The notes under the pieces: generated by a model
Told to the model about the DNA's origin: nothing
The model's input: the letters and a program-made list of their open reading frames with translations, nothing else
Database searches by the model: none
IMG/VR virus record: IMGVR_UViG_3300025713_000650
Coordinates: 32,001 to 96,000 of that record
Direction: 5' to 3' (one strand)
Source of the DNA: a virus
Taxonomy: Duplodnaviria; Caudoviricetes
DNA: 64,000 nucleotides
Program-made: the position numbers and the translations under genes
Part shown: positions 4,007 through 47,240 of the stretch, piece after piece
Numbering within the stretch: position 1 is the stretch's first letter
Layout of the letters: every line of letters begins with the position of its first letter

Positions 4007-5875
4007 TTATTCCTCCTCTTGTTTTTTAGTTATCATTTTTATAAAATCCAATTCGGTTATAATGGGAATACCGTGTTTCTTTGCTTTTAAATATTTTGAA
4101 GAAGAAGATGATTCATTAGTAATTAAATATTTAGTATTTTTACTGATTGTCCCTAATGAAATCCCATTTTCATTTAATATTTTTTCAAACCTGTTTCTAG
4201 GCATTGACAATTTACCTGTAACTGCAACTGAATATTTTATTTTCCTCTCTTCTAATTGCTCATTTGAAATTGGAATAATTTTTGATAATAAATTCCAAAA
4301 ATCATATTTTCTATATAATTCATTTTTAATATTTATAGGAACATCTAATGTATTAATTTCACTTAATAAGAATGTTTCGGGAACTACTTTTCTTAAAGCA
4401 TATGATGCAGATTTACCCAAACCTGTTAAATTACAAATATACCAAAATTCAGATATTGTAAAATTATTATTAAATTTCTTTAATAAATTATATTCTAATT
4501 CTGTTATTAATTTTCCATAATGATTCCCAAATAAATTTTGATTATCTTCTAATCTTTTTTCTTTATTTACATTTTTTAAATATTCAACTAACTCACAAAC
4601 TAAAGATACTGTTTTATATTTATTTATCCATTCTTCTAATGTATTAGGACCCAAACCATCAGGAATACCAGATATTTCTAAAATCTTTAAAATATTACCT
4701 TTTATTCTTGCAGGACAATCTAAATTGTTGCAAACTAAATGAACGCTTTCCCAATCTAAATGAAATCCACAAACAGGACATCTTTCAGGAAGATCAACTT
4801 CTTGTTCTTGTAAAACATTTCTAATATAAGGTATAACATCACCAGATCTTATAACAGTAATTAATGAATTTCTATTTAAGCCATTATCTTTAATATACTG
4901 AGCGTTGTGAGCTGTAATATTTTGGATGTTTGCTTGACAAATAAAAATAGGTTTTTTAAGTTTAACAACGGGAATAACTCTTCCTGATATTCCTGTTTTC
5001 CATATTATATCCTCAACTAAACCTACACCAGTTTCACCTTCAAATTTATAAGCTATCATATTTTCAATAATATCTTTTCCACTTCTTATAACTGAATTTT
5101 TATTTATAACTAAACCATCAATAGGAAATAAAAATTTTATTTTTTCATATATTTCTTTAAGATTTTCTACATTTATTTCATCAATAAAAGAATAAATTGG
5201 AAAATCATCAAAAAACCCCCAACTAGATAAATAAGTAAATATATCTGTTTTATAATCAACTTTATATGATTTATCTTCTAAAATTCTAATACTATATGGA
5301 ATAAATTCTACCATATCTAAATCTTTTGTAATTTCATCACGATTTAAAATTCCTGAAACATAATTTCTTGGAGATGGAATATCTCTATTTTTTAATTCTT
5401 GTTCATATTTAATAGGAATAATACATTCACCTCTTATTGATAATAAACCTTTTGGTAAATTATGAATATTATATTTTTCTAAAATATATTTTATTTTATT
5501 TGTGCAAACTCTTCCATTTAACCCATCACCTCTTGATAATGCTTTTATTAAAATACCATTTTGATAATATAAAACAAAAGAACCTCCATCAAATTTTGGA
5601 GAGATAATAACATTTTTTGTAAAATCATAAGGAATATTTTCATTATATTTAAATTTTGAATTTATTGATCCAACTAAAGATCCAATGTGTCTTGATTTAC
5701 TTTTTTCTTCAGGTTTATATCCCCAACCGACAGATTGTAATATCTCAGAATTTGGATTTTGTATTTTTAAAATCTCAACTAAATTATCAAATTCTTCATC
5801 AGTAATAAACGCTTGACCTTCATAATATGATTTACTTGCAGAAATGATTTTTAATTCTAAATCTGAATATTCCAT
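4007..5875 (-). CDS. ligA: NAD-dependent DNA ligase
   Basis: YYEG..ITDEEFD Ia domain, KFDG adenylation motif, RSGDVIP OB fold, C4 zinc finger, C-terminal BRCT (VTGKL). Confidence 0.95.
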   Translation of the reverse strand: MEYSDLELKIISASKSYYEGQAFITDEEFDNLVEILKIQNPNSEILQSVGWGYKPEEKSKSRHIGSLVGSINSKFKYNENIPYDFTKNVIISPKFDGGSFVLYYQNGILIKALSRGDGLNGRVCTNKIKYILEKYNIHNLPKGLLSIRGECIIPIKYEQELKNRDIPSPRNYVSGILNRDEITKDLDMVEFIPYSIRILEDKSYKVDYKTDIFTYLSSWGFFDDFPIYSFIDEINVENLKEIYEKIKFLFPIDGLVINKNSVIRSGKDIIENMIAYKFEGETGVGLVEDIIWKTGISGRVIPVVKLKKPIFICQANIQNITAHNAQYIKDNGLNRNSLITVIRSGDVIPYIRNVLQEQEVDLPERCPVCGFHLDWESVHLVCNNLDCPARIKGNILKILEISGIPDGLGPNTLEEWINKYKTVSLVCELVEYLKNVNKEKRLEDNQNLFGNHYGKLITELEYNLLKKFNNNFTISEFWYICNLTGLGKSASYALRKVVPETFLLSEINTLDVPINIKNELYRKYDFWNLLSKIIPISNEQLEERKIKYSVAVTGKLSMPRNRFEKILNENGISLGTISKNTKYLITNESSSSSKYLKAKKHGIPIITELDFIKMITKKQEEE

Positions 5876-5916
5876 TTATTCTCCTTTCTTTTTTTAGATT
5901 TAAAAAAAGAGAGTGT

Positions 5917-20128: not shown

Positions 20129-21442
20129 CTAAGCGTAAGCGAAAGTGGAGGATGAATCGGTTATCCAATTGTTGTTTCTACACGCCAATCGAATTTTTTC
20201 TGTGCTAATTTGCTTATATTTAGATGTTGTTTGTAAATAATTACCTTGTATATCTTGCACATATACCCAATTACCAGTGAATCCCGATATAAAACCAATC
20301 TTATTTATTTCTGGTATATACACTTTATCCCACAAGCACCACTTCTTTTCTTTTACAATTATTTCTTTTGTATTTTTGCTATTTCTTTTTGCTTTCCTAT
20401 TAGGTTCTTTTCTACCTTTACGCGGTATTTCTTCATGTAAACTACGTTTCTTTTTACGTACCTGCTTTATATAATATATATTATCGCTATACTTCATTGG
20501 TTTTATATTTGCAATTACTACTGCATCGTTTATATGCGACTTTTCTATATTCCACTCTTTACGTTTTCTGCGTGTGTATAGTCCAAAAGTATATTGCGTT
20601 GGTGTTATTTCTTGTAGTTTAGGTACAAGATAATCTTTTAGTACATTCATAAATGCCGTTTCCTGAAATTGCTTTATCTTAGGTAGATTTTTACCTGTAA
20701 ATTCTTTGTATTCCATGTTGTCTTTTGCTTTATTATGCGCTTCACAACTACATACTAAATTGCTTGGATTATTGCTACCACCCTTGCTTCTTGGTATAAT
20801 ATGGTCTACTTCAAGAATATCATTGCAAGGTATGTCTGGTCTTAATTTTGCATAATGACAAGTAAAATTATCTCTTATTTTTACATATTCTTTTACGCTA
20901 TCATATCCATACATTTCTCCCTGTTGATATTCTATACCATTAATATCTGGATTAACTAATGCCTGTGTATCAAATTGCCCTATTTCTACTCTTATTCTGC
21001 TTATTGGTAGAATTTTTACAATATCATTTACAAGTCTTATATGAGCATTAATCCTTGATTGTATACTTGGCGGTAACCATCCTTTTTTTCTTTTTCTATT
21101 TAAGAACCTTGCTTTTCTATACCTTGTTTTTCTATTACGTCTTGCATGTCGAAGTCGTCTCCTTGTATGAATATTCTCTTTTATGTCTTGTCTTAATTCT
21201 GCTTCGGCACGATAAAGCACATTACCTTGTTCCGTTGTAACTGCCACACCTATATGTTTGCTTCCTGCGTCAATACCTAATACACATTCTTGTATTTGAT
21301 TTTCACACTCAAATAATAATTGAATTGTAAATGGTTCATATTTTACTATTTTAGCCTTCTTGTTTTTCAGCAATTTTCTTGCCTTAGCAGGCTTGCAAGG
21401 CATTAAAGGCTTACCTTCTATTGAAACTACATATACTAACAT
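20129..21442 (-). CDS. iscB: RNA-guided endonuclease IscB
   Basis: PLMP domain, RuvC-I GIDAG, RRxRR bridge helix, RuvC-II E, HNH (DHIIP..GG.N..NL...C..HN), RuvC-III SHINDA. Confidence 0.95.
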   Translation of the reverse strand: MLVYVVSIEGKPLMPCKPAKARKLLKNKKAKIVKYEPFTIQLLFECENQIQECVLGIDAGSKHIGVAVTTEQGNVLYRAEAELRQDIKENIHTRRRLRHARRNRKTRYRKARFLNRKRKKGWLPPSIQSRINAHIRLVNDIVKILPISRIRVEIGQFDTQALVNPDINGIEYQQGEMYGYDSVKEYVKIRDNFTCHYAKLRPDIPCNDILEVDHIIPRSKGGSNNPSNLVCSCEAHNKAKDNMEYKEFTGKNLPKIKQFQETAFMNVLKDYLVPKLQEITPTQYTFGLYTRRKRKEWNIEKSHINDAVVIANIKPMKYSDNIYYIKQVRKKKRSLHEEIPRKGRKEPNRKAKRNSKNTKEIIVKEKKWCLWDKVYIPEINKIGFISGFTGNWVYVQDIQGNYLQTTSKYKQISTEKIRLACRNNNWITDSSSTFAYA

Positions 21443-22993: not shown

Positions 22994-23563
22994 TTATTCT
23001 TCATATCCAGAGAACATTCTATCCTCTGTAATATTATATTCTTTTTTTAATAAATCCAAAATTGTTTCTTTTGTCAACCCCAATAATGGAGCTTCAATTT
23101 TAATTTGAGATGTACAAACTAAAGAAAACAATTCATTTATTTTAACAACATACTCTTGATAACAATCTGGAAATAAATTAATTCTATCTGAATAATCAGC
23201 ACCAAACCAAATCAATGGAATTTTATTTGTTTCAGCATATGCAGATGCAATCGTTAGAAAAAAAGTATTTCTCATTGGAACATAAAATTCATTTACTTTT
23301 TCATATAAATTATTTTCAAAATGTCCGGTTAATGCACTATTTGTTAATGCTGAATAAGTTTGAAAATTTGTATAAAGAATATGTGCATTTTCTTCATTTG
23401 CATATTTTTTAGCAAATTCTAATTCTTTAATATGTTTTTGACCGTAATCAATAAATAAAAGAATTGATTTATAACCTAAACTTTTACTTAATTGATGTAA
23501 AAGAATACTATCAGCACCACCACTAAATAATATTATAATATTATATTTTGATTCTTCTTCCAT
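22994..23563 (-). CDS. queC: QueC-like PP-loop ATPase (7-cyano-7-deazaguanine synthase family), lacking the C-terminal zinc site
   Basis: SGGADS, DYGQKH..EL, SALT, YVPMRN, FPDC, APL..LTK. Confidence 0.85.
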   Translation of the reverse strand: MEEESKYNIIILFSGGADSILLHQLSKSLGYKSILLFIDYGQKHIKELEFAKKYANEENAHILYTNFQTYSALTNSALTGHFENNLYEKVNEFYVPMRNTFFLTIASAYAETNKIPLIWFGADYSDRINLFPDCYQEYVVKINELFSLVCTSQIKIEAPLLGLTKETILDLLKKEYNITEDRMFSGYEE

Positions 23564-23604: not shown

Positions 23605-23640
23605 AAAAATGGAGGAGGTATTATTTCTAATACCTCCTCC
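23605..23640 (-). terminator. terminator closing the ubiquitin-like operon
   Basis: 13-bp stem GGAGGAGGTATTA/TAATACCTCCTCC followed by U-tract. Confidence 0.75.
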
Positions 23641-23679: not shown

Positions 23680-24132
23680 TTATCCTTTGCTACCAGAAGG
23701 CATTATGAACTCAAGATTGTCATACTGTCCGAGAATATAATCCTCAGAAACCTCACGACCATTCACAATTGCCTTTGAAGAAGGAGCAATGTTGAGAACT
23801 TCTGTAAAGAATGCTGCAACTTCACATACCTTCTTACCCACAACGGGATAGTTACCAGAACTAGCACCACTCGAAACTGTAATCATTGCTTCATTGTAAC
23901 CAGCATCATTCTTAGAATGGAAGGTTGTATTCAGATTGGTGATCTTTGAATCATTCGCGGGTTTTACCTCTTCTTTGAGATTTGATTGTGCTTGATCCTT
24001 CTGTGCTTTGATAATTGCAGAAATCATGTTATCCTTAACTTCCTTGACCTTGAATGAGATTCCAAAAGATTGTGCAATTACTCTGAGTTCAGCCTTCGTC
24101 ATTTCTTCCAATTCACGAACTGTGTAATTCAT
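23680..24132 (-). CDS. ubiquitin-like (beta-grasp) protein with N-terminal Rho_N/HeH domain, C-terminus SGSKG
   Basis: LEEMTKAELRVIAQSFGI...K..MISAII; C-terminal AIVNG.EV..DYIL...D.LEF..PSGSKG; AGGAGG before ATG 24132. Confidence 0.8.
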   Translation of the reverse strand: MNYTVRELEEMTKAELRVIAQSFGISFKVKEVKDNMISAIIKAQKDQAQSNLKEEVKPANDSKITNLNTTFHSKNDAGYNEAMITVSSGASSGNYPVVGKKVCEVAAFFTEVLNIAPSSKAIVNGREVSEDYILGQYDNLEFIMPSGSKG

Positions 24133-24154
24133 ACTTCCTCCTTGCTTCATTTTT

Positions 24155-24862
24155 TTAGTTTTCTTTAGGATGACGTACTTTTGAATCTGCTTTCATTTTT
24201 AAAATATCAAAATATATCTCACTAATTTCTATTGTATCGTTTTTATCATGATAATAAAATGGCCACATCATTAAATTTGCAACCGTTGAATTTGTAAATA
24301 ATAACTGTGGTTCATGTACAGATAATTCTTCACAAGACATTTCATGAGGACTTTTATCTTCTGGATTTTCGATTTCTGGATGATAATCTGTAAGAGAAGG
24401 TGTAATATCTATTCCATTTTTTCTGAAATAAATTTGAACGTTTCCGTCAATATATTCATTACCACCAGAAATTAATAATATATTATCTAATGTCTTACAA
24501 TAATCAGACACTATTTTACGAGTTTTATGATTATCTACACACATAAAAATCACATTAATATTTTTAAGAACAGAATTAATATTTGATTTATTAATATATG
24601 CTTGGCAAAAGTTAAAATCTATAATATTAAATTTTCTAGATAATTCTTTAAATTTTTCTTCTGCTTTACCACCAAATGATTGAAATTCTTGACGATCTAG
24701 ATTGTGAGATTCATATTCATCACCATCTATTAATAAAATAGAACTTTTACATGTCTTTGTAAAATTTAAAAATCTACATAAAATATTAATTAAATTTGTT
24801 CCTATACCACCTAAACCAATTACTGCAATTTTATAGTTTTTCAATAATATCCCCCTTTCCAT
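24155..24862 (-). CDS. E1-like ThiF-family activating enzyme
   Basis: IAVIGLGGIG, LIDGD..E..NLDRQ.F, KA, CVDN..TR, SGGN, SC catalytic-Cys region. Confidence 0.92.
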   Translation of the reverse strand: MERGILLKNYKIAVIGLGGIGTNLINILCRFLNFTKTCKSSILLIDGDEYESHNLDRQEFQSFGGKAEEKFKELSRKFNIIDFNFCQAYINKSNINSVLKNINVIFMCVDNHKTRKIVSDYCKTLDNILLISGGNEYIDGNVQIYFRKNGIDITPSLTDYHPEIENPEDKSPHEMSCEELSVHEPQLLFTNSTVANLMMWPFYYHDKNDTIEISEIYFDILKMKADSKVRHPKEN

Positions 24863-25898
24863 ATTTTTTTTGAATATAGTTTCTCAACGCCAATGATTTA
24901 AAATACGAACATTTTGTAATACAAATACCTTTATATTTACAATCTTTGCATATATGATCTTCTAAATAAGTTTTTTCAGAATCTTCAATTGAATTATAAA
25001 CTTGCATAAATGATTTACCGTTTAATTCTTCACTTTCAATTTTTGAAAGATATTTTTCACGAATTGAATTAATCATTAAATTATTTTTATTTTTTGATTC
25101 TATAATATTTTCATTCTTTGTTATCACTTTTTTATTTTCTGAATAATTTTCTGAAATATCACCCATATATCCATATCCATAAAATGGAAAAACATCATCA
25201 TAAAACCCATAACCATAGAATTGTTCACAATCTTTACTATTTATCATTTCATTGTAATTTATCATATCTAACCAATAAATAGGAAACTTTTTTGGAGCAA
25301 TAAAGAATTTTTTATTTGCTTTTGCTTTTATATTAATATATTCTGATGGGTTCTTTTTAATTCTATGACCATTACAAACAACAGAACAAACAACTTCATG
25401 ATAATAGTCATCATTTAACTTACCTACTGTTATATGAAGTCCATCCATTGTTTTTTCATCACTAATATCTACACCTGAATGAAATGCTCCAAAATCAGAA
25501 TGACTATGAATTGTTCCAACTAATAATTTATCTGTAAATGAGATATTTCTTTCATATTTTATACTTGCTCTTGTAACTTCTTGTTCAGGTACATGAATAT
25601 AATATTCTCTTGTTTGACGATCCAAATATAACATAACAACTGATTCTGTTTTATATTTTTCAAATACTGTTTTAAGAAATGATACAATTTTTGAAAATAA
25701 TGAATAACTTATTTTTGGTAAATCCAAATTGATATACGGTTTCTTATTTTCTAAAAATGAAATTTTATCAACTGGAACTAATGCATCAATTAAACCTACT
25801 TTTTTTCTTAATAATATTCCTTTTTTTGTTATGATATAATAAATATCATCATTGGGTAAAGGTTGTTTTTTATCATATAGAGCTATGACTTTAAACAT
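24831..25898 (-). CDS. JAB/MPN+ metalloprotease (deubiquitinase-like) with C-terminal Cys cluster
   Basis: E...Q.V...S, GTIHSH..F.AFHS..D..DE. Confidence 0.9.
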   Translation of the reverse strand: MFKVIALYDKKQPLPNDDIYYIITKKGILLRKKVGLIDALVPVDKISFLENKKPYINLDLPKISYSLFSKIVSFLKTVFEKYKTESVVMLYLDRQTREYYIHVPEQEVTRASIKYERNISFTDKLLVGTIHSHSDFGAFHSGVDISDEKTMDGLHITVGKLNDDYYHEVVCSVVCNGHRIKKNPSEYINIKAKANKKFFIAPKKFPIYWLDMINYNEMINSKDCEQFYGYGFYDDVFPFYGYGYMGDISENYSENKKVITKNENIIESKNKNNLMINSIREKYLSKIESEELNGKSFMQVYNSIEDSEKTYLEDHICKDCKYKGICITKCSYFKSLALRNYIQKKYGKGDIIEKL

Positions 25899-28363
25899 TC
25901 CATTATTCTCCTTTCTTGATAGAATAATAATTTATTAGGGTTATTAACAAATATATTTCTAAAATCTGGTAAAACATTTGTAACCTTTACTAAATCATTA
26001 GTCATAAATCTAGGATTTGGTAAAGTTGCATATCTAAAGTATTTTTTTAGATTATCATAATATGGTCCATATAGATATTTACCATCTAAACTCGAACTAT
26101 AATAACAATTGTAACCAGTTACGAAACAAACAACTTTCATAGATTGAAGGTTAGATGTATTTACATAATCACCAAATTGAAAATTTAAATTTGGTTTCTT
26201 TATAACTTTTTTATTATATTTTTTATCATCTGGATATAAAACATCAAAATATTCGGGAATATCCATTAGATAAACTGTCTGACCATTTGTTAAAAGAGCC
26301 ATCTGTAAAATACAATCTGTTATGACGCAATGAATTTCATAACAATTATATTTTGAGAACGGTAATTCTAATGATCTTTTATCTGATTTTAATGTTATCC
26401 TTGTTCCTTTAGGATATTTTTCATGGTTATATGTAATCTTTCTTAATCTTATATCAAAAGGTACTTTAGTATTTTCTAAGTTAAATAAAGAAATAGGAAA
26501 CGATCTTTTATCTTCATCTTCCATTTCTTGTTCAATATTAACATATATAATCATTTGATCTAAATTAATATCAAAATTCTTAATAGTTTGTTTTCCTGGA
26601 ATTTCATTGTTTATCATATATAAAATATCATCATTAACTGACAATTCATAATTTCCATTATTGGAAGGTATTGTTAATTTAGTAAAATCTTCATTAAAAA
26701 GACAATCTTTTATTTTATCCATTATTTCTAAATTATAATTTTCATCATCTGGTGTTAAATAAATTTTATCTTTTGAATAATCGTAATACATCTTATTATA
26801 TAAATTACCACAAATATGATTTCCAATTAGCATAAATTTATTTTTAAACATTTCTCCATTAATATTTAGTTTTTCAGTAAAACAAAAAGACTTATTTTCT
26901 TTATTCATATATAAACATTTTTCTTCATTGTTTACTATATTTTTTAAAAACAAATAAATGTCATTGTCTTCAAAATTTATATTTGTAATTTCATAAGCAT
27001 CTTTATGATATAAATATATATTATTATCAATTATATCTATTAAATAAATTTGTTTTCCGATTTTTAATTCTATATCATTACTTGTTTTTATATAATTTGT
27101 TATTTCCCATTCTTCTAAAAAACTATCAACTATGATATATGAATTTTTATCATTAGTTTCTATCGTTATTAAATTATCTGTTTTATTAATTTTTATTTTA
27201 TGAATTTTCTTAATTATATTTTTTAATTCTTTATGAATAATAAAACTATTTACTTTTATTTCAATATTTTCATCACCATTTTTTATTGTTATTTTATCAA
27301 CTTCTTCAATATTCATAATAAAATTATAATCTGCTTCTTTATCATTTCCATCTTCATCGGTAATAAGTAATTTACAATTATTAATTGCTTTTTTGATAAT
27401 ATATTTTTTATTATCAACTTCAATTATATCATTTTCTCTCTTAACTATTATATTGTTTGGATTTTCTATATCTCTTATTAAAATTTCACATGGTAATTTA
27501 TTGTTTAAAAATGAATTTATATTATATGAGTCTTGATGACTTAAATTACGTGTTAAATTAAACATAGAATTTTGTATTAAACTACTTAAACTTGCATAGG
27601 GAATAAAATTTTCCTTTAATATAAACACTGGATCATTTTTAGAATAATAATCCCAAGAAAAAATATCTGTTTTTGAATCTTTTTTCTTTGCCATCTGTAA
27701 ATATGAATCTTCCAAATCATTATTAAATGTTGATGTCCAGAAATTAGCAATAAGCTTTTCGATAACATTAATATCAATATCTTCAACTTCAAAATCTTTT
27801 TTATAACCTGTACATACCATTAAATTAGTTCCGATATTGGGTAATGTAGAATGATATATAATATCATTTAAAGTATTTAATGGAGATTTTCTGAATCCAT
27901 AATAAGTTCTTATATGTTGTATATATTTATCATAATGTTTATTATAACTAATTATAAAATAAAAAATTGAATATGGAAAGAATAGTCTCAAACTACCGTT
28001 AAATCTCATATTTTCAATTTTATCTGTCCAGTCAAAATTTTCAAATAATGGATTTTTATTTAATTTTCGATATTCTGTATTAATTTCTTTTTTAAAATTT
28101 ATTGTTCTATATTGAGGTTCCTCTTCAATAACAAATAAAAGTGTATTTAGATATGGATGTTTGTATACAAATCTACAATTTTTTGGAAGAACAAACATAT
28201 GAGGTATATCATTATCATCGTCTATAATATTTTCTATTTGAAAATATGGAAGTTTATTCATTATTAATTCATTATTTTTATCTAAAGATTTTCTATTAAA
28301 ATCAGGATAATGAAAATTTACAAAAAATTTTTTTTTATTACCGAACATTATATAATTAGCCAT
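25883..28363 (-). CDS. prokaryotic E2-like (family D-type) conjugating enzyme with ~550-aa C-terminal extension
   Basis: FPY.IF, P...L.D..Y...LPNI....VCTG, FW.S.FN.D. Confidence 0.75.
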   Translation of the reverse strand: MANYIMFGNKKKFFVNFHYPDFNRKSLDKNNELIMNKLPYFQIENIIDDDNDIPHMFVLPKNCRFVYKHPYLNTLLFVIEEEPQYRTINFKKEINTEYRKLNKNPLFENFDWTDKIENMRFNGSLRLFFPYSIFYFIISYNKHYDKYIQHIRTYYGFRKSPLNTLNDIIYHSTLPNIGTNLMVCTGYKKDFEVEDIDINVIEKLIANFWTSTFNNDLEDSYLQMAKKKDSKTDIFSWDYYSKNDPVFILKENFIPYASLSSLIQNSMFNLTRNLSHQDSYNINSFLNNKLPCEILIRDIENPNNIIVKRENDIIEVDNKKYIIKKAINNCKLLITDEDGNDKEADYNFIMNIEEVDKITIKNGDENIEIKVNSFIIHKELKNIIKKIHKIKINKTDNLITIETNDKNSYIIVDSFLEEWEITNYIKTSNDIELKIGKQIYLIDIIDNNIYLYHKDAYEITNINFEDNDIYLFLKNIVNNEEKCLYMNKENKSFCFTEKLNINGEMFKNKFMLIGNHICGNLYNKMYYDYSKDKIYLTPDDENYNLEIMDKIKDCLFNEDFTKLTIPSNNGNYELSVNDDILYMINNEIPGKQTIKNFDINLDQMIIYVNIEQEMEDEDKRSFPISLFNLENTKVPFDIRLRKITYNHEKYPKGTRITLKSDKRSLELPFSKYNCYEIHCVITDCILQMALLTNGQTVYLMDIPEYFDVLYPDDKKYNKKVIKKPNLNFQFGDYVNTSNLQSMKVVCFVTGYNCYYSSSLDGKYLYGPYYDNLKKYFRYATLPNPRFMTNDLVKVTNVLPDFRNIFVNNPNKLLFYQERRIMECLKS

Positions 28364-33691: not shown

Positions 33692-35314
33692 TTAACTCCT
33701 TATAAATGTTATCATATCAACATATGAAGAATTTAAATTTTTATCTTTTATTTGTTTTAACAAATCTGAATTAATATTATTCATATTCTTAAATTCATTT
33801 TCTATTGATTCATCATTATTTAATACTATAATATCATTGAAGTTTTTCATAACTATACTATCTTTTTTCTCCAAAATTAAAGGTGGATCATATTCTCTAA
33901 CATAATAACACAATGAAATAGATAAAGCCAAGTCATCTTTACAACCTGTATCTGCTTCAACTTTTCCGTTTTTCTTTTCAACTAATCCTATCAATTGCAT
34001 TGCAGTTCTTGATGATTTAATACTATTGGTATATTGGGTAATATATTTATATAATGCATTAATCATTAAAGGTCTTGTTTTTAAATTTGTTGTTAAACCG
34101 GAAGATACTTTACCTTCACTCTTTTTCTCTTTATAAATTGGAATATTATTTTCCGTTTTATTATCGAAATATTCAACTACTTGATTTCCATAAGAATTTT
34201 TTTCAATAATTAATAGACCGTGGAACCTATGAGCTACATATTCAATTATCTTACAAAAATTTGTAACTGATATTTTTCCTTTATATTCTGCAACTTGTTC
34301 TGCTGTCTCATAATCAATTACATTAATTGCAGATTCATCTGATCCAAATTCAGGTGCAGTATCAACACCTATCAAATAGTAAGAATCATTGTTTGGCTCT
34401 TCAAATTCCCAAAATTCAGAATTAAAAAGTTTAACTTTCTTTCTGGGTTCTCCCTTATCTTCTTGTAATATAATACAAACTTTATCATCAAAGAATGATC
34501 CACCAGAAGGTAAGAATTTTAATTCCAATTCCTGTTCAATTTTCTTTGGATCATTATCAAATAATCTACATTGAGTATTATACCATTCAGGATCATTAGC
34601 TAATTCTGGAATCATTTTCCAATGAATTATAAATGGTTTGAAAATACTATCATAATCATCAGATATAGCTTGAGTATATTTTTTATAATACCAAGCTCCT
34701 GTACCCATTGTTTTATTAGGGGTACTTAATATAATAGTTCCATAAGGGATCCCAGAATTTCTTGCATGTTTTTGAGATGTCGATAAAGCCGGAACCATTG
34801 AAGTCCAAGCTTCATCAATATTTTTAATAAATGCAGCTTCATCAATTACTAAAAATGTAATTGGTTTACCTCTTAATGTTTTTTCAGGAGCTTGAGGATT
34901 AACAGTTGCCGCAAATACTTTAGAACCATTTTTTAAAATAAAACTCTGTTCTGTGTATTTATCAAATCCTGGATTCATCCATGATGGTAACTTCTCGACC
35001 ATTCCTCTAACAGCTCTAGCAAAATCTGTAGCTTCTTTTCCATCCTTTGATATAATTCCAACTACAACATTATCAAAAAATACAACTAACCATGAACATA
35101 ATGCCTGAATAATAGTTGAAATTCCAACCTGTCTACTTTTTAAAACTAAAAGATATCTTTCAATTAATAATTTTTCTATTAATTCTTTTTGTTTATCATA
35201 AGGTTTTAAAAGAATATCTCCACCTGGAATCTCAATTAAAACATGATTTTCACAATAATGTTCAAAAGACTCTTTACATTTTATAAATTCCTTTACTTGT
35301 TGAAGTTTTGTCAT
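33692..35314 (-). CDS. terL: terminase large subunit (T4 gp17-like)
   Basis: KSRQVGIS Walker A, LVIDEAAF Walker B, LSTPN, GVDTA and DDL nuclease acidic residues. Confidence 0.95.
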   Translation of the reverse strand: MTKLQQVKEFIKCKESFEHYCENHVLIEIPGGDILLKPYDKQKELIEKLLIERYLLVLKSRQVGISTIIQALCSWLVVFFDNVVVGIISKDGKEATDFARAVRGMVEKLPSWMNPGFDKYTEQSFILKNGSKVFAATVNPQAPEKTLRGKPITFLVIDEAAFIKNIDEAWTSMVPALSTSQKHARNSGIPYGTIILSTPNKTMGTGAWYYKKYTQAISDDYDSIFKPFIIHWKMIPELANDPEWYNTQCRLFDNDPKKIEQELELKFLPSGGSFFDDKVCIILQEDKGEPRKKVKLFNSEFWEFEEPNNDSYYLIGVDTAPEFGSDESAINVIDYETAEQVAEYKGKISVTNFCKIIEYVAHRFHGLLIIEKNSYGNQVVEYFDNKTENNIPIYKEKKSEGKVSSGLTTNLKTRPLMINALYKYITQYTNSIKSSRTAMQLIGLVEKKNGKVEADTGCKDDLALSISLCYYVREYDPPLILEKKDSIVMKNFNDIIVLNNDESIENEFKNMNNINSDLLKQIKDKNLNSSYVDMITFIRS

Positions 35315-40944: not shown

Positions 40945-43900
40945 TTAATCAATACTAATACCAATTGTTTTAAGATAGGCCTCTAATAATTTAACACTTT
41001 CTGGAGTTTGACATTCATCCTTTATTTCTCTTATAAATTCAGATCCAATCGAATCTCGAATATATTTATTTTTTAAATCAATTGAATCTGATTTCGTTGT
41101 TGTCATTTCTGTTAAATTAGTTAGACCCGCATGAGATATAAAACAAAATGTTTCCATTTCACCAGATCTTTGACCACCTTTATTTTTTCTACCACTGGGT
41201 GGTTGCATTGTTTTTCTCATATAAGGACCTATGCCTCTAGCTGCCAAACGTTCTTCAGCTATATGTACCATTCTAAAGAAATACATGTAACCTAATGCAA
41301 CTTTACTTATAATTTTTTGTTTTGATATCTCATCAAAAATATCATATCTAAATTCTGTATTTGTAAATTCACATGCCTTTTTAATTTGATCACAAGTAGA
41401 AGATTCAAAAGGTGGAGCTATAATATAGAAATTTTCTATAAATTTTTCATCTATAATAGAATTATTTAATTCTTCTTTAACTTGTAATGTGTACCAATTA
41501 TCTTTTGTATTATCTAAAATCTTAATATAATCTAAAATATACCCTTTTAACTCATCTTGACTTAATTCTTTATTATTTAACATTTCATTTAATTTAATTT
41601 TAAAATCATTTACAGACATACCCATATGTAATTCAAAAATCTGACCTACGTTCATTCTTGAATATGTTGATAATGGATTTATAATAATATCTACATGTTT
41701 TCCATCTTCTGTTTTGGGCATTAAATCATGGGGTAAAATTTTTGAAATAACACCTTTGTTTCCATGTCTATTTCCAATTTTATCACCTATTTGTATTTTT
41801 CTACTAAAAAATCCACCTATTTTTATATAAATACCATTAATTCTTTCACCTTTAAATTTAAATCTTCCTCGATTATTAAATCTATCTAATCCTTTTTCTC
41901 TAATAACTTCAATTGCTTTTTTCTTTGAAAATAATTTAAAAATTAATTCTTGAATTTTTTTATTATATGATATTTGACTCTCAAACTTTTTATCAACCCA
42001 ATGTCTAAATTGAGGTATTATATTATTATATTCATTTGGATAAATTTCAACATTTGTAATCAAAACATCTTTGTTATAAATTAAAGGAATATTTTCTTCA
42101 AAAATAGATAAATAATTCATTGGATCATTAGGAATATCTTTCATAATAGCATAAGGATTACCTTTTAAAATTAATTCTCTTTTATGTTTTCTATAATATG
42201 CTTTATCTTTTCCTGGCTCTGAAAATTCTATATCGGGATTTGGTTCAGGTAATGGTTTATACCTATTTTCATCTAAACTCAATAATAATTTATCTGGAGG
42301 TAAAACAAATGAAAGATTTGCATAATGAATTGATGTAAACGAATCATCATTTAATAATCTATCTGAAATTACAATTGCGTCTTCATAATTATATCCATAA
42401 AAAGGCATTATCGCAGTAAGAAGATTTTTTCCGATGTTAATGCTTCCATTTTTACAAAAATTACTCTCTGCGATTATATCTCCCTCTGAAACTTTATCAC
42501 CTAATTTAACATATACATGCATAATATCCATATTTTTTACATAAATATGTCTATTATCTATATCAAATATATCATAATCATTATCTTTATATGCAATAAT
42601 TACAAATTTTGAATCTAGATAAATTACTTCTCCATCTTTTTTTGCCCTTTTAATAAATTGGGTCTTATCAGTATATAAATTTTCACAACCAGATTGAATT
42701 AAAGGAACATCAAATTCAGAAAGATTAATAGCCTGTCTCATTTGTGACGCTGACATTTGTAATCTTGTTTGATCATCGTGTTCTAAAAATGGAATCATAG
42801 AAATAGCTACGGATGTTGGATTTTTTTCACATATTTCTTCATTAAAACGCATATTCTCATCATATTTTGTTGAAGGTAATAAACATTGCAATACACCACA
42901 ATTATCTCTATCAGATGTATCTACTGGACATATTCTTCCAAACATACTATCCGATAAATCTCTAAGATAATGTGGTACATTTGCTTTATTAAAACCACCA
43001 GGACCAACTAATGTAATTCTCGATAATTTTGTAAGCTCATCAATAGGATTAATTGAAAAATCAAACTGAACAATATCTGATAAATTACAATTAGCAAGAA
43101 TTTTCTTTGAATTAATATTAAATTTTATTTTTGATTTTCTACTTGATATACATAAATCATAAACATTCTTCATTATTGTTGACAGCACAACATATTCAAA
43201 ACATCTAATTCTTTTATTTGTATAATCTAAATCATCAATACTTTTATTATTTTTTAAAATATCTGTTAATTCATCTAAAACATTATCAAATCTCATAAAT
43301 TTGGAAGTGATAATATCAATTTTAGGGATCAATGATAAAGCATATGCAATAATTTCTCCTGTTTTCTTTTTATCATATTTAGTAAAATATTCACCCAGAT
43401 ATTCTTGATAATCAATATTATCTACATAATATGCATATAAATCAAATAATAATTTTTCATAATCTGTTTGAGGGTTATCATTAATAATATATTCATTTAA
43501 ATTAAATTTATTAACAATATAATCTGAATCAAAAGAAGCAAAATATACTAATGCAAATGGAATTTCTTTACCCATGAATGATAATTTAATATAAGGGTGT
43601 TTTTTTCCAGAAATAATTAAAATTGTTGATAAATTTGATCTAAATTTAATGTTTTTACCTCTTGTTACAATTGGAATATCATATAATTGAAATAATGGAA
43701 TTTTTCTTTTACCTGCAATTGAAAAATAATTACCATCAATTAATTTTGGAATATAAACACTCAAATCAATTTCTTGAGTATTTCTTTTGAATTTTATAAT
43801 GATATTTTTCTTTAAAGTTTTTTCAACTTCAGAAGAAGGTGATTCTTTAATATCAAATTCTGAAAGTATAAGACCAGCATCTTCTGCCGGTCTTAGTATT

Positions 43901-44001
43901 TCTCTAATATTCACCATTAAATTATTATATTCTTTTTCTCGTATATTAAATATATTTTCTTTGTTTTGAATTGAATAATTTGGATTCTTAATTCTCATCA
44001 A
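40945..44001 (-). CDS. phage multisubunit RNA polymerase, beta-like subunit
   Basis: GRICPVDT, IPFLEHDD..RLQM...QMRQA, GYNYEDAIVIS, GDKIGNRHGNKGVIS, NPL...SRMN.GQ, GGQR.GEME. Confidence 0.95.
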   Translation of the reverse strand: MMRIKNPNYSIQNKENIFNIREKEYNNLMVNIREILRPAEDAGLILSEFDIKESPSSEVEKTLKKNIIIKFKRNTQEIDLSVYIPKLIDGNYFSIAGKRKIPLFQLYDIPIVTRGKNIKFRSNLSTILIISGKKHPYIKLSFMGKEIPFALVYFASFDSDYIVNKFNLNEYIINDNPQTDYEKLLFDLYAYYVDNIDYQEYLGEYFTKYDKKKTGEIIAYALSLIPKIDIITSKFMRFDNVLDELTDILKNNKSIDDLDYTNKRIRCFEYVVLSTIMKNVYDLCISSRKSKIKFNINSKKILANCNLSDIVQFDFSINPIDELTKLSRITLVGPGGFNKANVPHYLRDLSDSMFGRICPVDTSDRDNCGVLQCLLPSTKYDENMRFNEEICEKNPTSVAISMIPFLEHDDQTRLQMSASQMRQAINLSEFDVPLIQSGCENLYTDKTQFIKRAKKDGEVIYLDSKFVIIAYKDNDYDIFDIDNRHIYVKNMDIMHVYVKLGDKVSEGDIIAESNFCKNGSINIGKNLLTAIMPFYGYNYEDAIVISDRLLNDDSFTSIHYANLSFVLPPDKLLLSLDENRYKPLPEPNPDIEFSEPGKDKAYYRKHKRELILKGNPYAIMKDIPNDPMNYLSIFEENIPLIYNKDVLITNVEIYPNEYNNIIPQFRHWVDKKFESQISYNKKIQELIFKLFSKKKAIEVIREKGLDRFNNRGRFKFKGERINGIYIKIGGFFSRKIQIGDKIGNRHGNKGVISKILPHDLMPKTEDGKHVDIIINPLSTYSRMNVGQIFELHMGMSVNDFKIKLNEMLNNKELSQDELKGYILDYIKILDNTKDNWYTLQVKEELNNSIIDEKFIENFYIIAPPFESSTCDQIKKACEFTNTEFRYDIFDEISKQKIISKVALGYMYFFRMVHIAEERLAARGIGPYMRKTMQPPSGRKNKGGQRSGEMETFCFISHAGLTNLTEMTTTKSDSIDLKNKYIRDSIGSEFIREIKDECQTPESVKLLEAYLKTIGISID

Positions 44002-44030: not shown

Positions 44031-47000
44031 TTAAATATTTGTTTTCCTACCTAATAACATATTATCTAAGATACCAGAATATAAACCTTCATTAGATATA
44101 CCCCGTAAAAGATTCTTTTTCTGATTTGAAAATCCAAATCCCAATAACCATGATTCTTTACTTGGAATTGTTAAAATGCTAATAAATTCTGGAGAATAAT
44201 TGTTTCTATCTTTTAATAATCTCCATTTTTTATTACCATACCACATTAATTGAGAAACTACTGATTCAAAATGAACATAATGTATTTCTTTTGAATAATT
44301 ATAAATTTTAAATAATTTTTCAATCAATTCTTCACAATTTAAATCTTTATTTGAATGTAATAATTTAGATACAGATGATAAATCGCTAATAATATCTTCT
44401 TGTAACATATCCTCGCTACCCTTTTTAGTAATAGCTGCTCCCGAGTTATGTATAAATATTCCTGCCTTCAATGCAAAATTAGGATACTCTGAATCAACAG
44501 TTAAATCATAAAATTCTTCATATTCTGGTAAATCTATAAATTGTATATTTTTAACAAATCTATTATTTTTAATAAAATATCTGAATGACATTCGTTCAAT
44601 AAATTTTCCATTTTTGTTTTCTAATTTTGATTTATTTTTTCTATAGATTGGCATTAATTGATCATTAACTTGTAAATCTTTTGCTTCTTTGGAAGTTCCA
44701 TCTTGCATAATAAATTTATGATCTAATGTGCATTCAACTATTTCATCATTATCTAAAGTAACCTTAACCATTCTCTTTTCAAATCTATCTTTATAAGCAT
44801 TCACAATCTTGCTAATATATATGTCTCCTTCTGGAGAACAATTAAATGTATAAAAATCTTCACCATTTTTAACTTTGTCATAAACTTCTTGAATTTCAAA
44901 TGATTTATTATTAATATCTAAAATTCTTGTATTTTTTCTTAAACTCAAATGAAATGTGCGCAAAACTAACTGTGTAGATGCTTCACCTAAACTTTGAGCT
45001 GCAATCATTCCTATAAATGGTGAATGTAATATTTTATGTAAATCACCATAACACCTTTTACAAACCTTTTCACTTTTACAAAAAATAGGACTTCTAATTT
45101 TAATATTTTTACCAATTATATTCTTTAAATTATCATTTGTAATTAATTCTTCATTATCTCCATTTAAATAAAATTTATATAAAAGACATTTTGCCTTTTT
45201 CTCATCTTCAACGAATACATTTAGATAATCTTCAGTCCCACAATCATCAAGATTTGAATCTAATATTAAATTACAACATGCAAATGCAAGCTGTCTTGAT
45301 AAATAACCTGAATCTCCTGTATTTATTGCAACGTCTAAAAGACCTTTTCTGCAGCCATAACTTGAATTGAAAAATTCATATTGAGTTAAACCTTCAACTA
45401 AATTATTTTTAACTGGTGTTTCAATAATTTTTCCTGAAAAATTTGAGATAAATCCTCTTGATAATAATATCTGTCTTACCTGTTCCCATGTTCCTCTAGA
45501 ACCAGAATCTATGACATATGAATACATAAATTTATTTCTTAATTCATTTTCAATTTCTTTACTCGCTAATTCATTTAACTGTTCTCTAGAAGTATTTTTT
45601 GAATAGATTGTTTCTTTCAATTCATCAACATTATCAAGAATTAAACCATCTAAAGATAAAGTTGTTCCATATAATGTTGAATATTTATAACCTATCATTT
45701 TAATATCATCTAAAATCTTAGATGTAATTGTATAATCATATTTATCATTAATATCATTTAATAAATTAATAAGCTTCTTTTTATTAACAGGATCTTTTAT
45801 AATAGGATAATCTTCAGGTAAACATTCATTAAATATTTTTAAACTTTCTGTTATTTGTTCATTTTTATATTCAATCTGTTTATTTAATTCAGGAATCATA
45901 TTATTTGTTAAAATATAAACTCCTAAAATAATATCTTGAGAAGGAGTTGCTGATAGTGATATATTTGCAGGATTATATAAATTCTTAGTAAATAAGAATT
46001 TATCTAAAACTTCTTCTTTTGATTCTTTACTTATTGGTAAATATATTGCCATTTGATCTCCATCAAAATCTGCATTAAATCCCGCACATGCTAATGGATG
46101 AATTTTTATTACTTTATCAGTATTCATTTTAATCTTAAAACCTAATAAACTTAATCTGTGCAAAGAAGGTTGTCTATTTAATAAACAAACTTCATCCTTG
46201 ATTACTTCTTCACAAATAGAAATCAAATTTAATTTATCCATTTCAATACACTCATCTATATAATCAACAGCTTCATTTTGAAGTTTAAAGTGATTATAAT
46301 CTATTAATTTTTTTGAAATTTGTAATTTATATAATTCTAAAATCATTACATAAGGTAATGAACATTCGTCGATATCTATTACAGGATCAGGTGTAATTAT
46401 AGCTCTTCCTGAAAAATCTATCCTTTTACCTAATATATTTCCACGAATCAAACCCTCTTTTTTAGATAATTTATCCAAAATAAATTCATATAATGTATTA
46501 ACTAATTTTTGTAATTGTTTAAAATACATATAATATATTTCTTTTTTATTAAGAATATCTATATTTGTTTCTTCGATTGTTGCTTTATGATTTAAAAGGT
46601 GTGTATAATAACTATTTATTTCATCAGATTTCATTTGATCGTTTTTAGAACGAATTTTTGATGTTGGTCTTAAATCAGGAGGTAAAACTAAAACTTCATT
46701 GATCATTAAACTATCTATATGATCATTAATATATTTCCAATCAGGAATATCTATTAATTCTTCTGATAACCATGTTACTAATTTTATAATAGCCTCTGAT
46801 TTTTCATATTTTTTAAATTTTTCTGGAGGCCATTTTTCGTCATTTTCTTCAACTACAAAATGATTATTTTCTTCGTCAACATATAATGATGATTTTTCAT
46901 TTTTAATTAACAAATCTAATGGCTTTTTTATTTCACTTTTTCCTAATGAAACTAATAAATCATAAAAAATAGGATTTACAACAGGAATAGGTAAAATAAT

Positions 47001-47240
47001 TTTTGCAAATCTTTTTCTTCTTTCACGATTAGATGTAATATCAACATGACAAACAGGACATTTTTTATTTGAATTAGAAGGACCCCAATAAATTTCACAT
47101 TGACAAATATAATTTTTTAATGGACCAAAAATCTGTTCTGAAAAAAGACCATCTTTATGAAAATTTTTTTTATCTAAAATTTTTGATGTTTTAACTTCTT
47201 TAATTATCTTTATAAATTCCCTATTTATCAGTTTCGGCAT
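44031..47240 (-). CDS. phage multisubunit RNA polymerase, beta-prime-like subunit, intein-containing
   Basis: GLFSEQIFGP, PPDLRP, GKRIDFSGR, NRQPSLHR, NADFDGD catalytic loop, T..SGYL.R, AAQSLGE..TQL.LRTFH. Confidence 0.95.
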   Translation of the reverse strand: MPKLINREFIKIIKEVKTSKILDKKNFHKDGLFSEQIFGPLKNYICQCEIYWGPSNSNKKCPVCHVDITSNRERRKRFAKIILPIPVVNPIFYDLLVSLGKSEIKKPLDLLIKNEKSSLYVDEENNHFVVEENDEKWPPEKFKKYEKSEAIIKLVTWLSEELIDIPDWKYINDHIDSLMINEVLVLPPDLRPTSKIRSKNDQMKSDEINSYYTHLLNHKATIEETNIDILNKKEIYYMYFKQLQKLVNTLYEFILDKLSKKEGLIRGNILGKRIDFSGRAIITPDPVIDIDECSLPYVMILELYKLQISKKLIDYNHFKLQNEAVDYIDECIEMDKLNLISICEEVIKDEVCLLNRQPSLHRLSLLGFKIKMNTDKVIKIHPLACAGFNADFDGDQMAIYLPISKESKEEVLDKFLFTKNLYNPANISLSATPSQDIILGVYILTNNMIPELNKQIEYKNEQITESLKIFNECLPEDYPIIKDPVNKKKLINLLNDINDKYDYTITSKILDDIKMIGYKYSTLYGTTLSLDGLILDNVDELKETIYSKNTSREQLNELASKEIENELRNKFMYSYVIDSGSRGTWEQVRQILLSRGFISNFSGKIIETPVKNNLVEGLTQYEFFNSSYGCRKGLLDVAINTGDSGYLSRQLAFACCNLILDSNLDDCGTEDYLNVFVEDEKKAKCLLYKFYLNGDNEELITNDNLKNIIGKNIKIRSPIFCKSEKVCKRCYGDLHKILHSPFIGMIAAQSLGEASTQLVLRTFHLSLRKNTRILDINNKSFEIQEVYDKVKNGEDFYTFNCSPEGDIYISKIVNAYKDRFEKRMVKVTLDNDEIVECTLDHKFIMQDGTSKEAKDLQVNDQLMPIYRKNKSKLENKNGKFIERMSFRYFIKNNRFVKNIQFIDLPEYEEFYDLTVDSEYPNFALKAGIFIHNSGAAITKKGSEDMLQEDIISDLSSVSKLLHSNKDLNCEELIEKLFKIYNYSKEIHYVHFESVVSQLMWYGNKKWRLLKDRNNYSPEFISILTIPSKESWLLGFGFSNQKKNLLRGISNEGLYSGILDNMLLGRKTNI
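44445..44945 (-). mobile_element. mini-intein (167 aa, no homing endonuclease) in the RNAP trigger loop
   Basis: Starts SLRKNTRI, block B CTLDHKF, block F/G FYDLTV..YPNFAL..GIFIHN followed by Ser. Confidence 0.9.

Follow-up and report, generated by a model that had tools for sequence, protein, structure and literature searches.

What could a phage achieve with a ubiquitin-like (Ubl) modifier that carries a second, nucleic-acid-binding type of domain at its own N-terminus? The question is raised by the last gene of a four-gene operon within 64,000 nt of a caudovirus genome (IMG/VR virus record IMGVR_UViG_3300025713_000650, positions 32,001 to 96,000; this whole stretch is hereafter called the window), in which an 826-aa E2-like protein, a JAB peptidase, an E1 and a 150-aa Ubl protein are encoded in this order on one strand. 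An earlier note on this DNA, made from the sequence alone, had proposed that the 150-aa protein is a Ubl modifier fused to a Rho_N/HeH domain. The three-part layout HeH - linker - Ubl was borne out by sequence profiles and by an AlphaFold model, and this architecture is far beyond chance. Our reading, to which we assign a probability of roughly 45%, is that the protein serves as the modifier of a phage E1-E2-JAB cassette and that its HeH rides on the conjugate, tethering or relocalising the target rather than marking it for degradation.

The coding sequence of the HeH-Ubl protein spans 23683..24132 on the minus strand, with the stop codon at 23680-23682, and its start and terminal KG are common to the homologs. 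The start at 24132 assumed by the earlier note is right, as a Shine-Dalgarno sequence AGGAGG is located 4 nt before the ATG (24137..24142, minus strand) and the homologs begin at the aligned position, the start MLQYTVRELE of the closest ones aligning with MNYTVRELE of the window protein. A 156-aa open reading frame (ORF) from the ATG at 24150 was rejected, lying 4 nt past the E1 stop and lacking a ribosome-binding site. The protein ends with ...LEFIMPSGSKG-stop, and an intrinsic terminator, composed of a 13-bp stem followed by a T-run (23611..23640, minus strand), closes the operon after the Ubl gene.

The N-terminal part of the protein (aa 1-53; 23974..24132, minus strand) is a Rho_N/HeH three-helix domain according to Pfam Rho_N, to profile searches against the PDB and to the structural model. 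Pfam Rho_N (PF07498) matched aa 7-48 of the window protein with an E-value of 1e-4 and 22.6 bits, vs a gathering score of 24.9; among the aligned full-length relatives, Rho_N matched 45 of 70 (best E 9.8e-11) and SAP matched 8 of 70. A profile built from 55 N-terminal domains and compared to the PDB retrieved residues 11-53 of Rho 3l0o with E 2.9e-8, two further Rho structures (8hsj, E 4e-6; 7oqh, E 2e-4) and also the SAP domain of Ku70. In the AlphaFold2 model of the whole protein, which took a 70-sequence alignment as input and reached a mean predicted local confidence (pLDDT) of 88, aa 1-50 scored 95-97 and folded into helices 5-10, 13-22 and 33-53. VIA-align superposed aa 3-50 of this model on residues 1-48 of Rho 1a62_A, with Z 7.1 and a root-mean-square deviation (rmsd) of 2.1 Å over 48 aligned residues. 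The profile match to Rho and this superposition confirmed the Rho_N/HeH fold that had been noticed at residues ~1-45. What the domain shares with the Rho_N and SAP-LEM-HeH families is the fold and the signature L..T..ELR.....GI.G.SK..K..LI..I, whereas it differs from Rho in standing alone on a flexible leash before the Ubl, with no OB fold or ATPase.

Mean column identity was 37% for the HeH vs 35% for the Ubl. The HeH thus appears to be under selection, since it is conserved as strongly as the Ubl, is sometimes duplicated and was never lost in the phage-type loci sampled. Its net charge in the family has a median of +1 and is positive in 56% of the members, and the window HeH has a degenerate basic loop, FKVKEVK, where the family has GxSKxRK. 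Neither the window nor the 84 loci retrieved by then contain a further ORF with this HeH profile, and a BFVD structure search gave no two-domain look-alike, only beta-grasp matches.

The HeH is followed by a flexible linker (aa 54-81; 23890..23973, minus strand), with pLDDT values of 55-70. The disorder of this segment in the model agrees with the linker that the earlier note had placed between the two domains. Across 70 relatives the linker has a high content of S, A, T and P and differs in length (interquartile range 27-38 aa), and column counts showed that, apart from a weakly conserved alternating hydrophobic stretch ahead of the Ubl, its sequence is variable as well; no conserved cleavage site was found in it across the relatives.

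The C-terminal domain (aa 82-150, ending in K149-G150; 23683..23889, minus strand) is a ThiS/MoaD-like beta-grasp Ubl, as indicated by structural matches and conservation. In the model, aa 82-145 were placed with pLDDT 91-98; VIA-align matched the domain to MoaD 1fm0_D (Z 8.4), ISG15 (Z 8.1) and BilA 8tyz_B (Z 7.1), and to TtuB and ThiS too, and Foldseek matched it to ubiquitin (TMt 0.68, rmsd 2.1-2.4). Pfam ThiS matched 15 of the 70 relatives. Within the family G89, N114 and K149 do not vary, while at least 90% of the members have kept G150. The protein ends exactly with KG in 85 of 152 relatives, the remainder having tails of 1-9 aa such as KGC. Calling the protein a Ubl modifier therefore holds, given its free KG end and the position of its gene behind an E1, an E2-like protein and a JAB with intact sites.

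The three genes upstream of the HeH-Ubl gene overlap or abut one another. The E1 (235 aa; 24158..24862, minus strand) is a minimal ThiF-type enzyme with GxGGxG, D110 and C177, which matched Pfam ThiF with E 6e-18 and is PRTRC_ThiF-like over its full length. The JAB/JAMM peptidase (355 aa; 24834..25898, minus strand) carries E85, H131, H133, S141 and D144 and matched Prok-JAB with E 2.7e-4 and PRTRC_A with E 8e-7. The E2-like protein (826 aa; 25886..28363, minus strand) is composed of a UBC/RWD-like core at ~aa 55-270 and a tail of ~550 aa, as assigned from Prok-E2_D, the model and conservation; Prok-E2_D matched the N-terminal part of 41 of 54 E2-like relatives (best E 5e-7), while the window protein scored 17.9 bits vs a cut-off of 25. 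The model of the E2-like protein (predicted template-modelling score 0.71) gave in VIA-align mostly E2, UEV and RWD folds with Z 4-6, including CdnG-E2, Cap2 and BubB; a Foldseek search of the core against the PDB gave no match at E<=1e-3. In 64-70 non-identical relatives, all the catalytic residues listed above for the E1 and the JAB are invariant or nearly so, and the same applies to N176 and C184 of the E2-like protein, which are spaced as in the HPN...C motif; no conserved downstream His was seen among the E2-like relatives. The conservation of these residues shows that E1, E2-like and JAB have retained what they need to activate, transfer and deconjugate a Ubl. When the HeH alone was modelled in complex with the 826-aa E2-like protein, the prediction scored 0.00, that is no answer, and weighs neither way.

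If the cassette works as its components suggest, the minimal ThiF E1 would adenylate Gly150 and take the Ubl onto Cys177, from where it would move to Cys184 of the E2-like protein, whose long tail probably picks the targets, and would finally be joined to lysines of these targets. The JAB would trim C-terminally extended precursors, which occur in ~44% of the relatives, and would reverse conjugation. Because all of this chemistry takes place at the C-terminus, the HeH would stay on the conjugate, on a leash of ~30 residues, and because it remains there the tag would deliver a small helical binding module; nothing in the sequences indicates a removal of the HeH before conjugation.

An exhaustive HMMER search, run on 1.84 billion cluster representatives, retrieved 279 relatives at E<=1e-3. 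In the best 152 cluster representatives, a list ranked by likeness to the HeH-bearing query so that HeH forms are favoured, 98 combine a single HeH with a single Ubl, the HeH is doubled in 15, a different and mostly disordered extension precedes the Ubl in 23, eight are a bare Ubl of 68-78 aa and eight are tandem Ubls with 2-4 repeats. Contexts were looked up for the stand-alone and tandem Ubl representatives, whose contigs were mostly too short to read. An exchange of N-terminal domains among homologous Ubls, which the earlier note had suggested looking for, does take place, the variants being HeH, double HeH, other extension, bare and tandem.

Furthermore, a search with an E1 alignment in one genome per prokaryotic species identified 80 loci. 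Four of them (L091, L092, L093 and L119), in which the HeH-Ubl is present, are contigs of 'mReC'-type phages, a group described below, that were binned into metagenome-assembled genomes (MAGs), and ~43 others have a Ubl of the same family after the E1, with a leader of 0-30 residues and without HeH. The bare-Ubl cassettes were found in MAGs labelled Methylomirabilota, Patescibacteria (CPR) and Woesearchaeota (DPANN), on contigs such as L129 (957 kb, Paceibacterota) and L147 (220 kb). Related JAB-E1 pairs in which no Ubl was detected come mostly from Desulfobaccales/deltaproteobacterial MAGs, where the contigs reach 3.4 Mb (the chromosome L132). In one MAG labelled as an uncultured gammaproteobacterium (L090:3954-8369) the cassette is flanked by an alanyl-tRNA-synthetase-like gene on one side and by the infA-rpsM-rpsK-rpsD-rpoA-rplQ operon on the other, and its Ubl has an acidic disordered leader in place of the HeH.

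The HeH was present in every phage-type locus sampled. On a quick, unrooted FastTree phylogeny of 148 E1 sequences the HeH label requires 2 changes vs a mean of 49.7 for shuffled labels, and the well-supported branches force one HeH change only; the tree is compatible with a single HeH fusion event in the phage lineage. Judged from these sequences, the N-terminal module is swappable and the HeH is specific to this phage lineage. The cellular cassettes with a bare Ubl have E1 proteins of 222-240 aa and, in six loci (L090, L095, L098, L131, L147 and L152), E2-like proteins of 689-893 aa. A coupling of the HeH to the long E2 tail was rejected, as the long-E2-like cellular cassettes have a bare Ubl. 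Since such cassettes use a bare Ubl, the HeH is not something that a small E1 or a long E2 tail requires. It is therefore unlikely, as far as the distribution can tell, that the HeH is needed for the enzymology itself, and this favours a function of the HeH as cargo or address.

The phages that carry the cassette were collected from IMG/VR by searching for patterns that represent Ubl motifs, which retrieved 80 viral contigs of 17-277 kb, the loci being thus selected through the Ubl. In all 80 the order is, where the contig reaches, E2-like (~850 aa) - JAB - E1 (~230 aa) - HeH-Ubl. Clustering of the flanking ORFs gave the arrangement SbcC - radical SAM - WYL_2 - cassette - second ThiF-like - two small proteins - beta' - beta, where beta' (~900 aa) and beta (~1000 aa) are the subunits of a phage RNA polymerase (RNAP) present in 79 of the 80 loci, with the operon 1-3 kb upstream of them. 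They make up the 'mReC' group of Weinheimer and Aylward (2020; PMC7481178), a paper in which ubiquitin, ThiF and JAB are not mentioned. The window phage belongs with them as a caudovirus with the motif NADxDGD and with RNAP beta and beta' longer than 800 aa, its own beta (40945-44001) having 1018 aa and its intein-interrupted beta' (44031-47240, minus strand), with NADFDGD at residue 389, having 1069 aa. In 50,697 deposited phage genomes tblastn gave no match to the Ubl, and a search with RNAP beta gave only distant jumbo-phage or contaminant matches; neither search thus revealed a close relative in culture.

The window phage also has SbcC, a radical-SAM protein, WYL_2, a terminase (33692-35314), a sheath and structural genes. 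In this phage the four-gene block alone has moved and is now placed between the packaging/structural genes and QueC, while the second ThiF is absent; the same arrangement is shared by a 136-kb NCBI contig from a MAG, whose Ubl is 67% identical. This joint relocation singles out the four genes of the cassette as the functional unit.

For the partner of the HeH, double-stranded DNA is most likely, by analogy to SAP/LEM/HeH domains; alternatively it may be a component of the phage transcription machinery, given the RNAP neighbourhood and the Rho ancestry of the fold. With either partner the modifier would be a tethering or relocalisation tag, as the earlier note had supposed. A more specific version for the entire deep-branching clade of phages with a multisubunit RNAP, in which the tag is a DNA- or polymerase-binding module that covalently recruits or sequesters host or phage proteins at the phage genome or the transcription apparatus, a sort of 'tethering ubiquitin', is rather doubtful.

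Several points weigh against the reading of the protein as a modifier whose HeH tethers its targets. The Rho_N score of the window protein is below the Pfam gathering cut-off, the HeH is not strongly basic in this family, and in Rho the RNA-binding site is mainly in the neighbouring OB fold and not in the helical bundle. The best structural matches of the Ubl include the sulfur carriers MoaD, ThiS and TtuB, and the family ends throughout with Lys-Gly and not with the classical GG. In the window 13 kb separate the cassette from the RNAP genes, its neighbours being packaging and structural genes, and the RNAP linkage may be only the shared ancestry, i.e., the inherited synteny, of one phage lineage. 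Beyond the architecture, we infer the conjugation, the targets and the partner of this Ubl alike.

Four other explanations were weighed on the same evidence. The HeH could be an internal handle of the pathway, by which the Ubl docks on the E1, the E2-like protein or the JAB of its own cassette, and could have no role on the final conjugate; such docking could offset an E1 of only 235 aa that is a bare ThiF core without the E2-recruiting ubiquitin-fold domain, and the HeH-Ubl of the phage loci always travels with this enzyme set. The cellular cassettes, however, manage with a bare Ubl although their E1 is equally minimal and some of them have the long E2-like protein, and we regard docking as unlikely. 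The likeness to HeH could also be that of a generic three-helix motif, a solubility or spacer appendage on a Ubl that acts as any bare bacterial Ubl. This would fit the score under the gathering threshold and the modest net charge, but the HeH is as conserved as the Ubl, its profile reaches Rho with E 3e-8, and it is kept, at times duplicated, in 113 of the 152 cluster representatives of the HeH-favouring list and in all phage-type loci, so that a mere appendage is very unlikely.

The remaining two explanations concern the Ubl end of the protein. It might act mainly unconjugated, as a small DNA- or RNAP-associated factor whose activity the cassette controls through Ubl chains or self-conjugates and their removal by the JAB. 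Lys149 beside the terminal Gly is invariant, tandem or poly-Ubl relatives exist and the gene adjoins RNAP beta'/beta in 79 of the 80 IMG/VR loci, all of which would suit such a factor; evidence of self-association is missing, however, and the invariant Cys and large conserved tail of the E2-like protein point to other substrates, which makes this explanation improbable. Alternatively the Ubl could be a sulfur carrier, working through a C-terminal thiocarboxylate in the modification of nucleic acids or nucleotides, with the HeH bringing it to the nucleic acid. MoaD, TtuB and ThiS are among the best fold matches, the E1 is ThiF/MoeB-like, a QueC-type PP-loop enzyme follows in the window and a radical-SAM gene is nearby in most relatives. 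Against this, the Ubl is always accompanied by a JAB and by an E2-like protein whose Cys is invariant, the end is KG and not GG, the operon has no rhodanese or cysteine desulfurase, and QueC, placed behind the terminator, adjoins the Ubl gene in no more than 3 of 85 sources; a sulfur carrier has in our view a slim chance.

The loci provided several additional observations. A second ThiF-like protein of ~290 aa, with GxGxxG, DCRD and a conserved ...TGAA end, is encoded after the HeH-Ubl in nearly all mReC loci (e.g., L005:11527-12399); it may form a heterodimer with the E1, or it may be activated separately. In five loci (L017, L018, L022, L034 and L067, at about 5300-5900) an extra Ubl-family gene of 108-146 aa is located directly upstream of the E2-like gene, and most or all of these extra copies match the HeH profile. 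Parts of the cassette are also duplicated, with two complete E2-JAB-E1 sets in tandem in L139:137-5871, two consecutive E2-like genes in L008:3307-8108 and several E2-like ORFs in a row in L140:1032-7130. In the window, the beta' gene carries its intein at aa 779-932 (Pfam Intein_splicing, E 8e-14), leaving the catalytic NADFDGD intact. The QueC homolog (22994-23563, minus strand), a QueC-type PP-loop enzyme, lies directly downstream of the operon; a functional tie to it was rejected, since no more than 3 of 85 sources, the window's close relatives, have it next to the Ubl gene, and the terminator stands between. An IscB-like RuvC/HNH protein of 437 aa is encoded at 20129-21442 (minus strand), and the corresponding place in L001 has a TnpB (Cas12f1-like_TNB) and a Y1 transposase, i.e., different mobile nucleases beside the same module.

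Ubl conjugation in bacteria has so far been studied as host antiphage defence (CBASS Cap2, Bil, Bub), and here the whole cascade is phage-encoded and conserved across a large uncultured phage clade, with a tag that has an extra binding domain. Should the HeH ride on the conjugates, the Ubl tag would be put to a different use, delivering a binding module and not a recognition surface, and a 'tethering ubiquitin' of this sort would be without a described counterpart in bacteria, archaea and eukaryotes. The four-gene system is experimentally tractable for asking what phages modify during infection. For proteomic searches the Lys-Gly end matters, as trypsin would leave a single-Gly remnant on the targets. 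The HeH-less cassette, widespread in MAGs of Methylomirabilota, Patescibacteria and Woesearchaeota and uncharacterised as far as we found, points to a large unexplored family.

One of the known systems closest to the cassette is the E2/JAB/E1/Ubl operon of type 6d predicted by Iyer, Burroughs and Aravind (2006; PMC1779556). Both encode, in separate genes, an E2 whose Cys is conserved, a JAB extended at its N-terminus, a small E1 of the ThiF type and a small Ubl with Gly at its C-terminus. We take type 6d to be the PRTRC cassette of TIGRFAM (TIGR03735-03741) together with Pfam Prok-E2_D. PRTRC_ThiF, PRTRC_A and Prok-E2_D are the best NCBIfam/Pfam matches of the window proteins, far below the curated cut-offs (48.6 bits vs 144.75 for PRTRC_ThiF and 28.7 vs 101.8 for PRTRC_A), and the PRTRC families in NCBIfam matched none of the 70 Ubls. 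As these families match best and yet remain below their cut-offs, the cassette is a distant relative of PRTRC/Prok-E2_D and not a member. It differs from type 6d in the E2 tail of ~550 aa, the HeH on the Ubl, the phage-borne location and the lack of a conserved downstream His. The alpha-helical partner gene of type 6d was not seen at the window cassette, and ParB gave no match among the six operon and flanking proteins scanned, the upstream 243-aa protein having been scanned against PHROGs only.

The window Ubl resembles ThiS, MoaD, TtuB and SAMP in its compact beta-grasp (65-70 aa) with Gly at the C-terminus and in its pairing with an activating enzyme of the ThiF type, while it ends in KG and not GG, has E2-like and JAB partners and carries the N-terminal HeH. 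The logic of Ubl, E2, JAB and E1 is also that of Bil (BilABCD) and Bub, and the window Ubl superposes on BilA 8tyz_B; the window system, however, is encoded by the phage and not by the host. The models of PADLOC 2023, which may predate those of Bil and Bub, had no match for the Ubl, the JAB and the E2-like protein, and the Rossmann core of the E1 matched weakly a Cap2-type 'E1-E2' (E 2e-5 or worse).

A cultured relative of the cassette, unannotated as such, was found in the Bacillus jumbo phage vB_BauM_KLEB27-3 (OM634661.1), at gp194-gp199. There gp194 is a ThiF with 34% identity to the window E1, gp195 is a JAB recorded as 'PRTRC_A domain-containing protein' and gp196 is a stand-alone E2-like protein of 255 aa that aligns with the core of the window E2-like protein, including the Cys motif (hhalign E 2.9e-5). 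The hypothetical protein gp199 (L088:6931-7638, minus strand) is composed of 4 head-to-tail Ubl repeats of 57 aa, each ending with KAGVKG, and a 7-residue tail; this predicted layout is that of a polyubiquitin precursor. It is without HeH, and its similarity to the window at the level of the Ubl is weak (hhalign probability 10%).

In the survey of Ubls by Gong et al. (2024; PMC11601603) the N-terminal modules of the Bil and Bub Ubls vary, comprising N/G-rich tails, coiled coils and DUF1508, and HeH is not among them. The nearest viral report concerns ThiF-like genes in the Asgard 'Nidhogg' viruses, which were read as hijacking of host ubiquitin. Full-text literature searches gave no description of a Rho_N/HeH fused to a Ubl in a phage, ThiF or JAB setting. 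The cassette is a distant relative of type 6d/PRTRC with an HeH fusion, the architecture and distribution of which are solid and the function of which we infer. A parallel exists in SUMO conjugation, where the E3 ligases of the PIAS/Siz class carry a SAP domain. The parallel would be the use of a helix-extended-helix DNA-binding module for directing a Ubl pathway to chromatin; in PIAS/Siz the SAP is on the ligase, whereas in the phage a related module is placed on the modifier itself.

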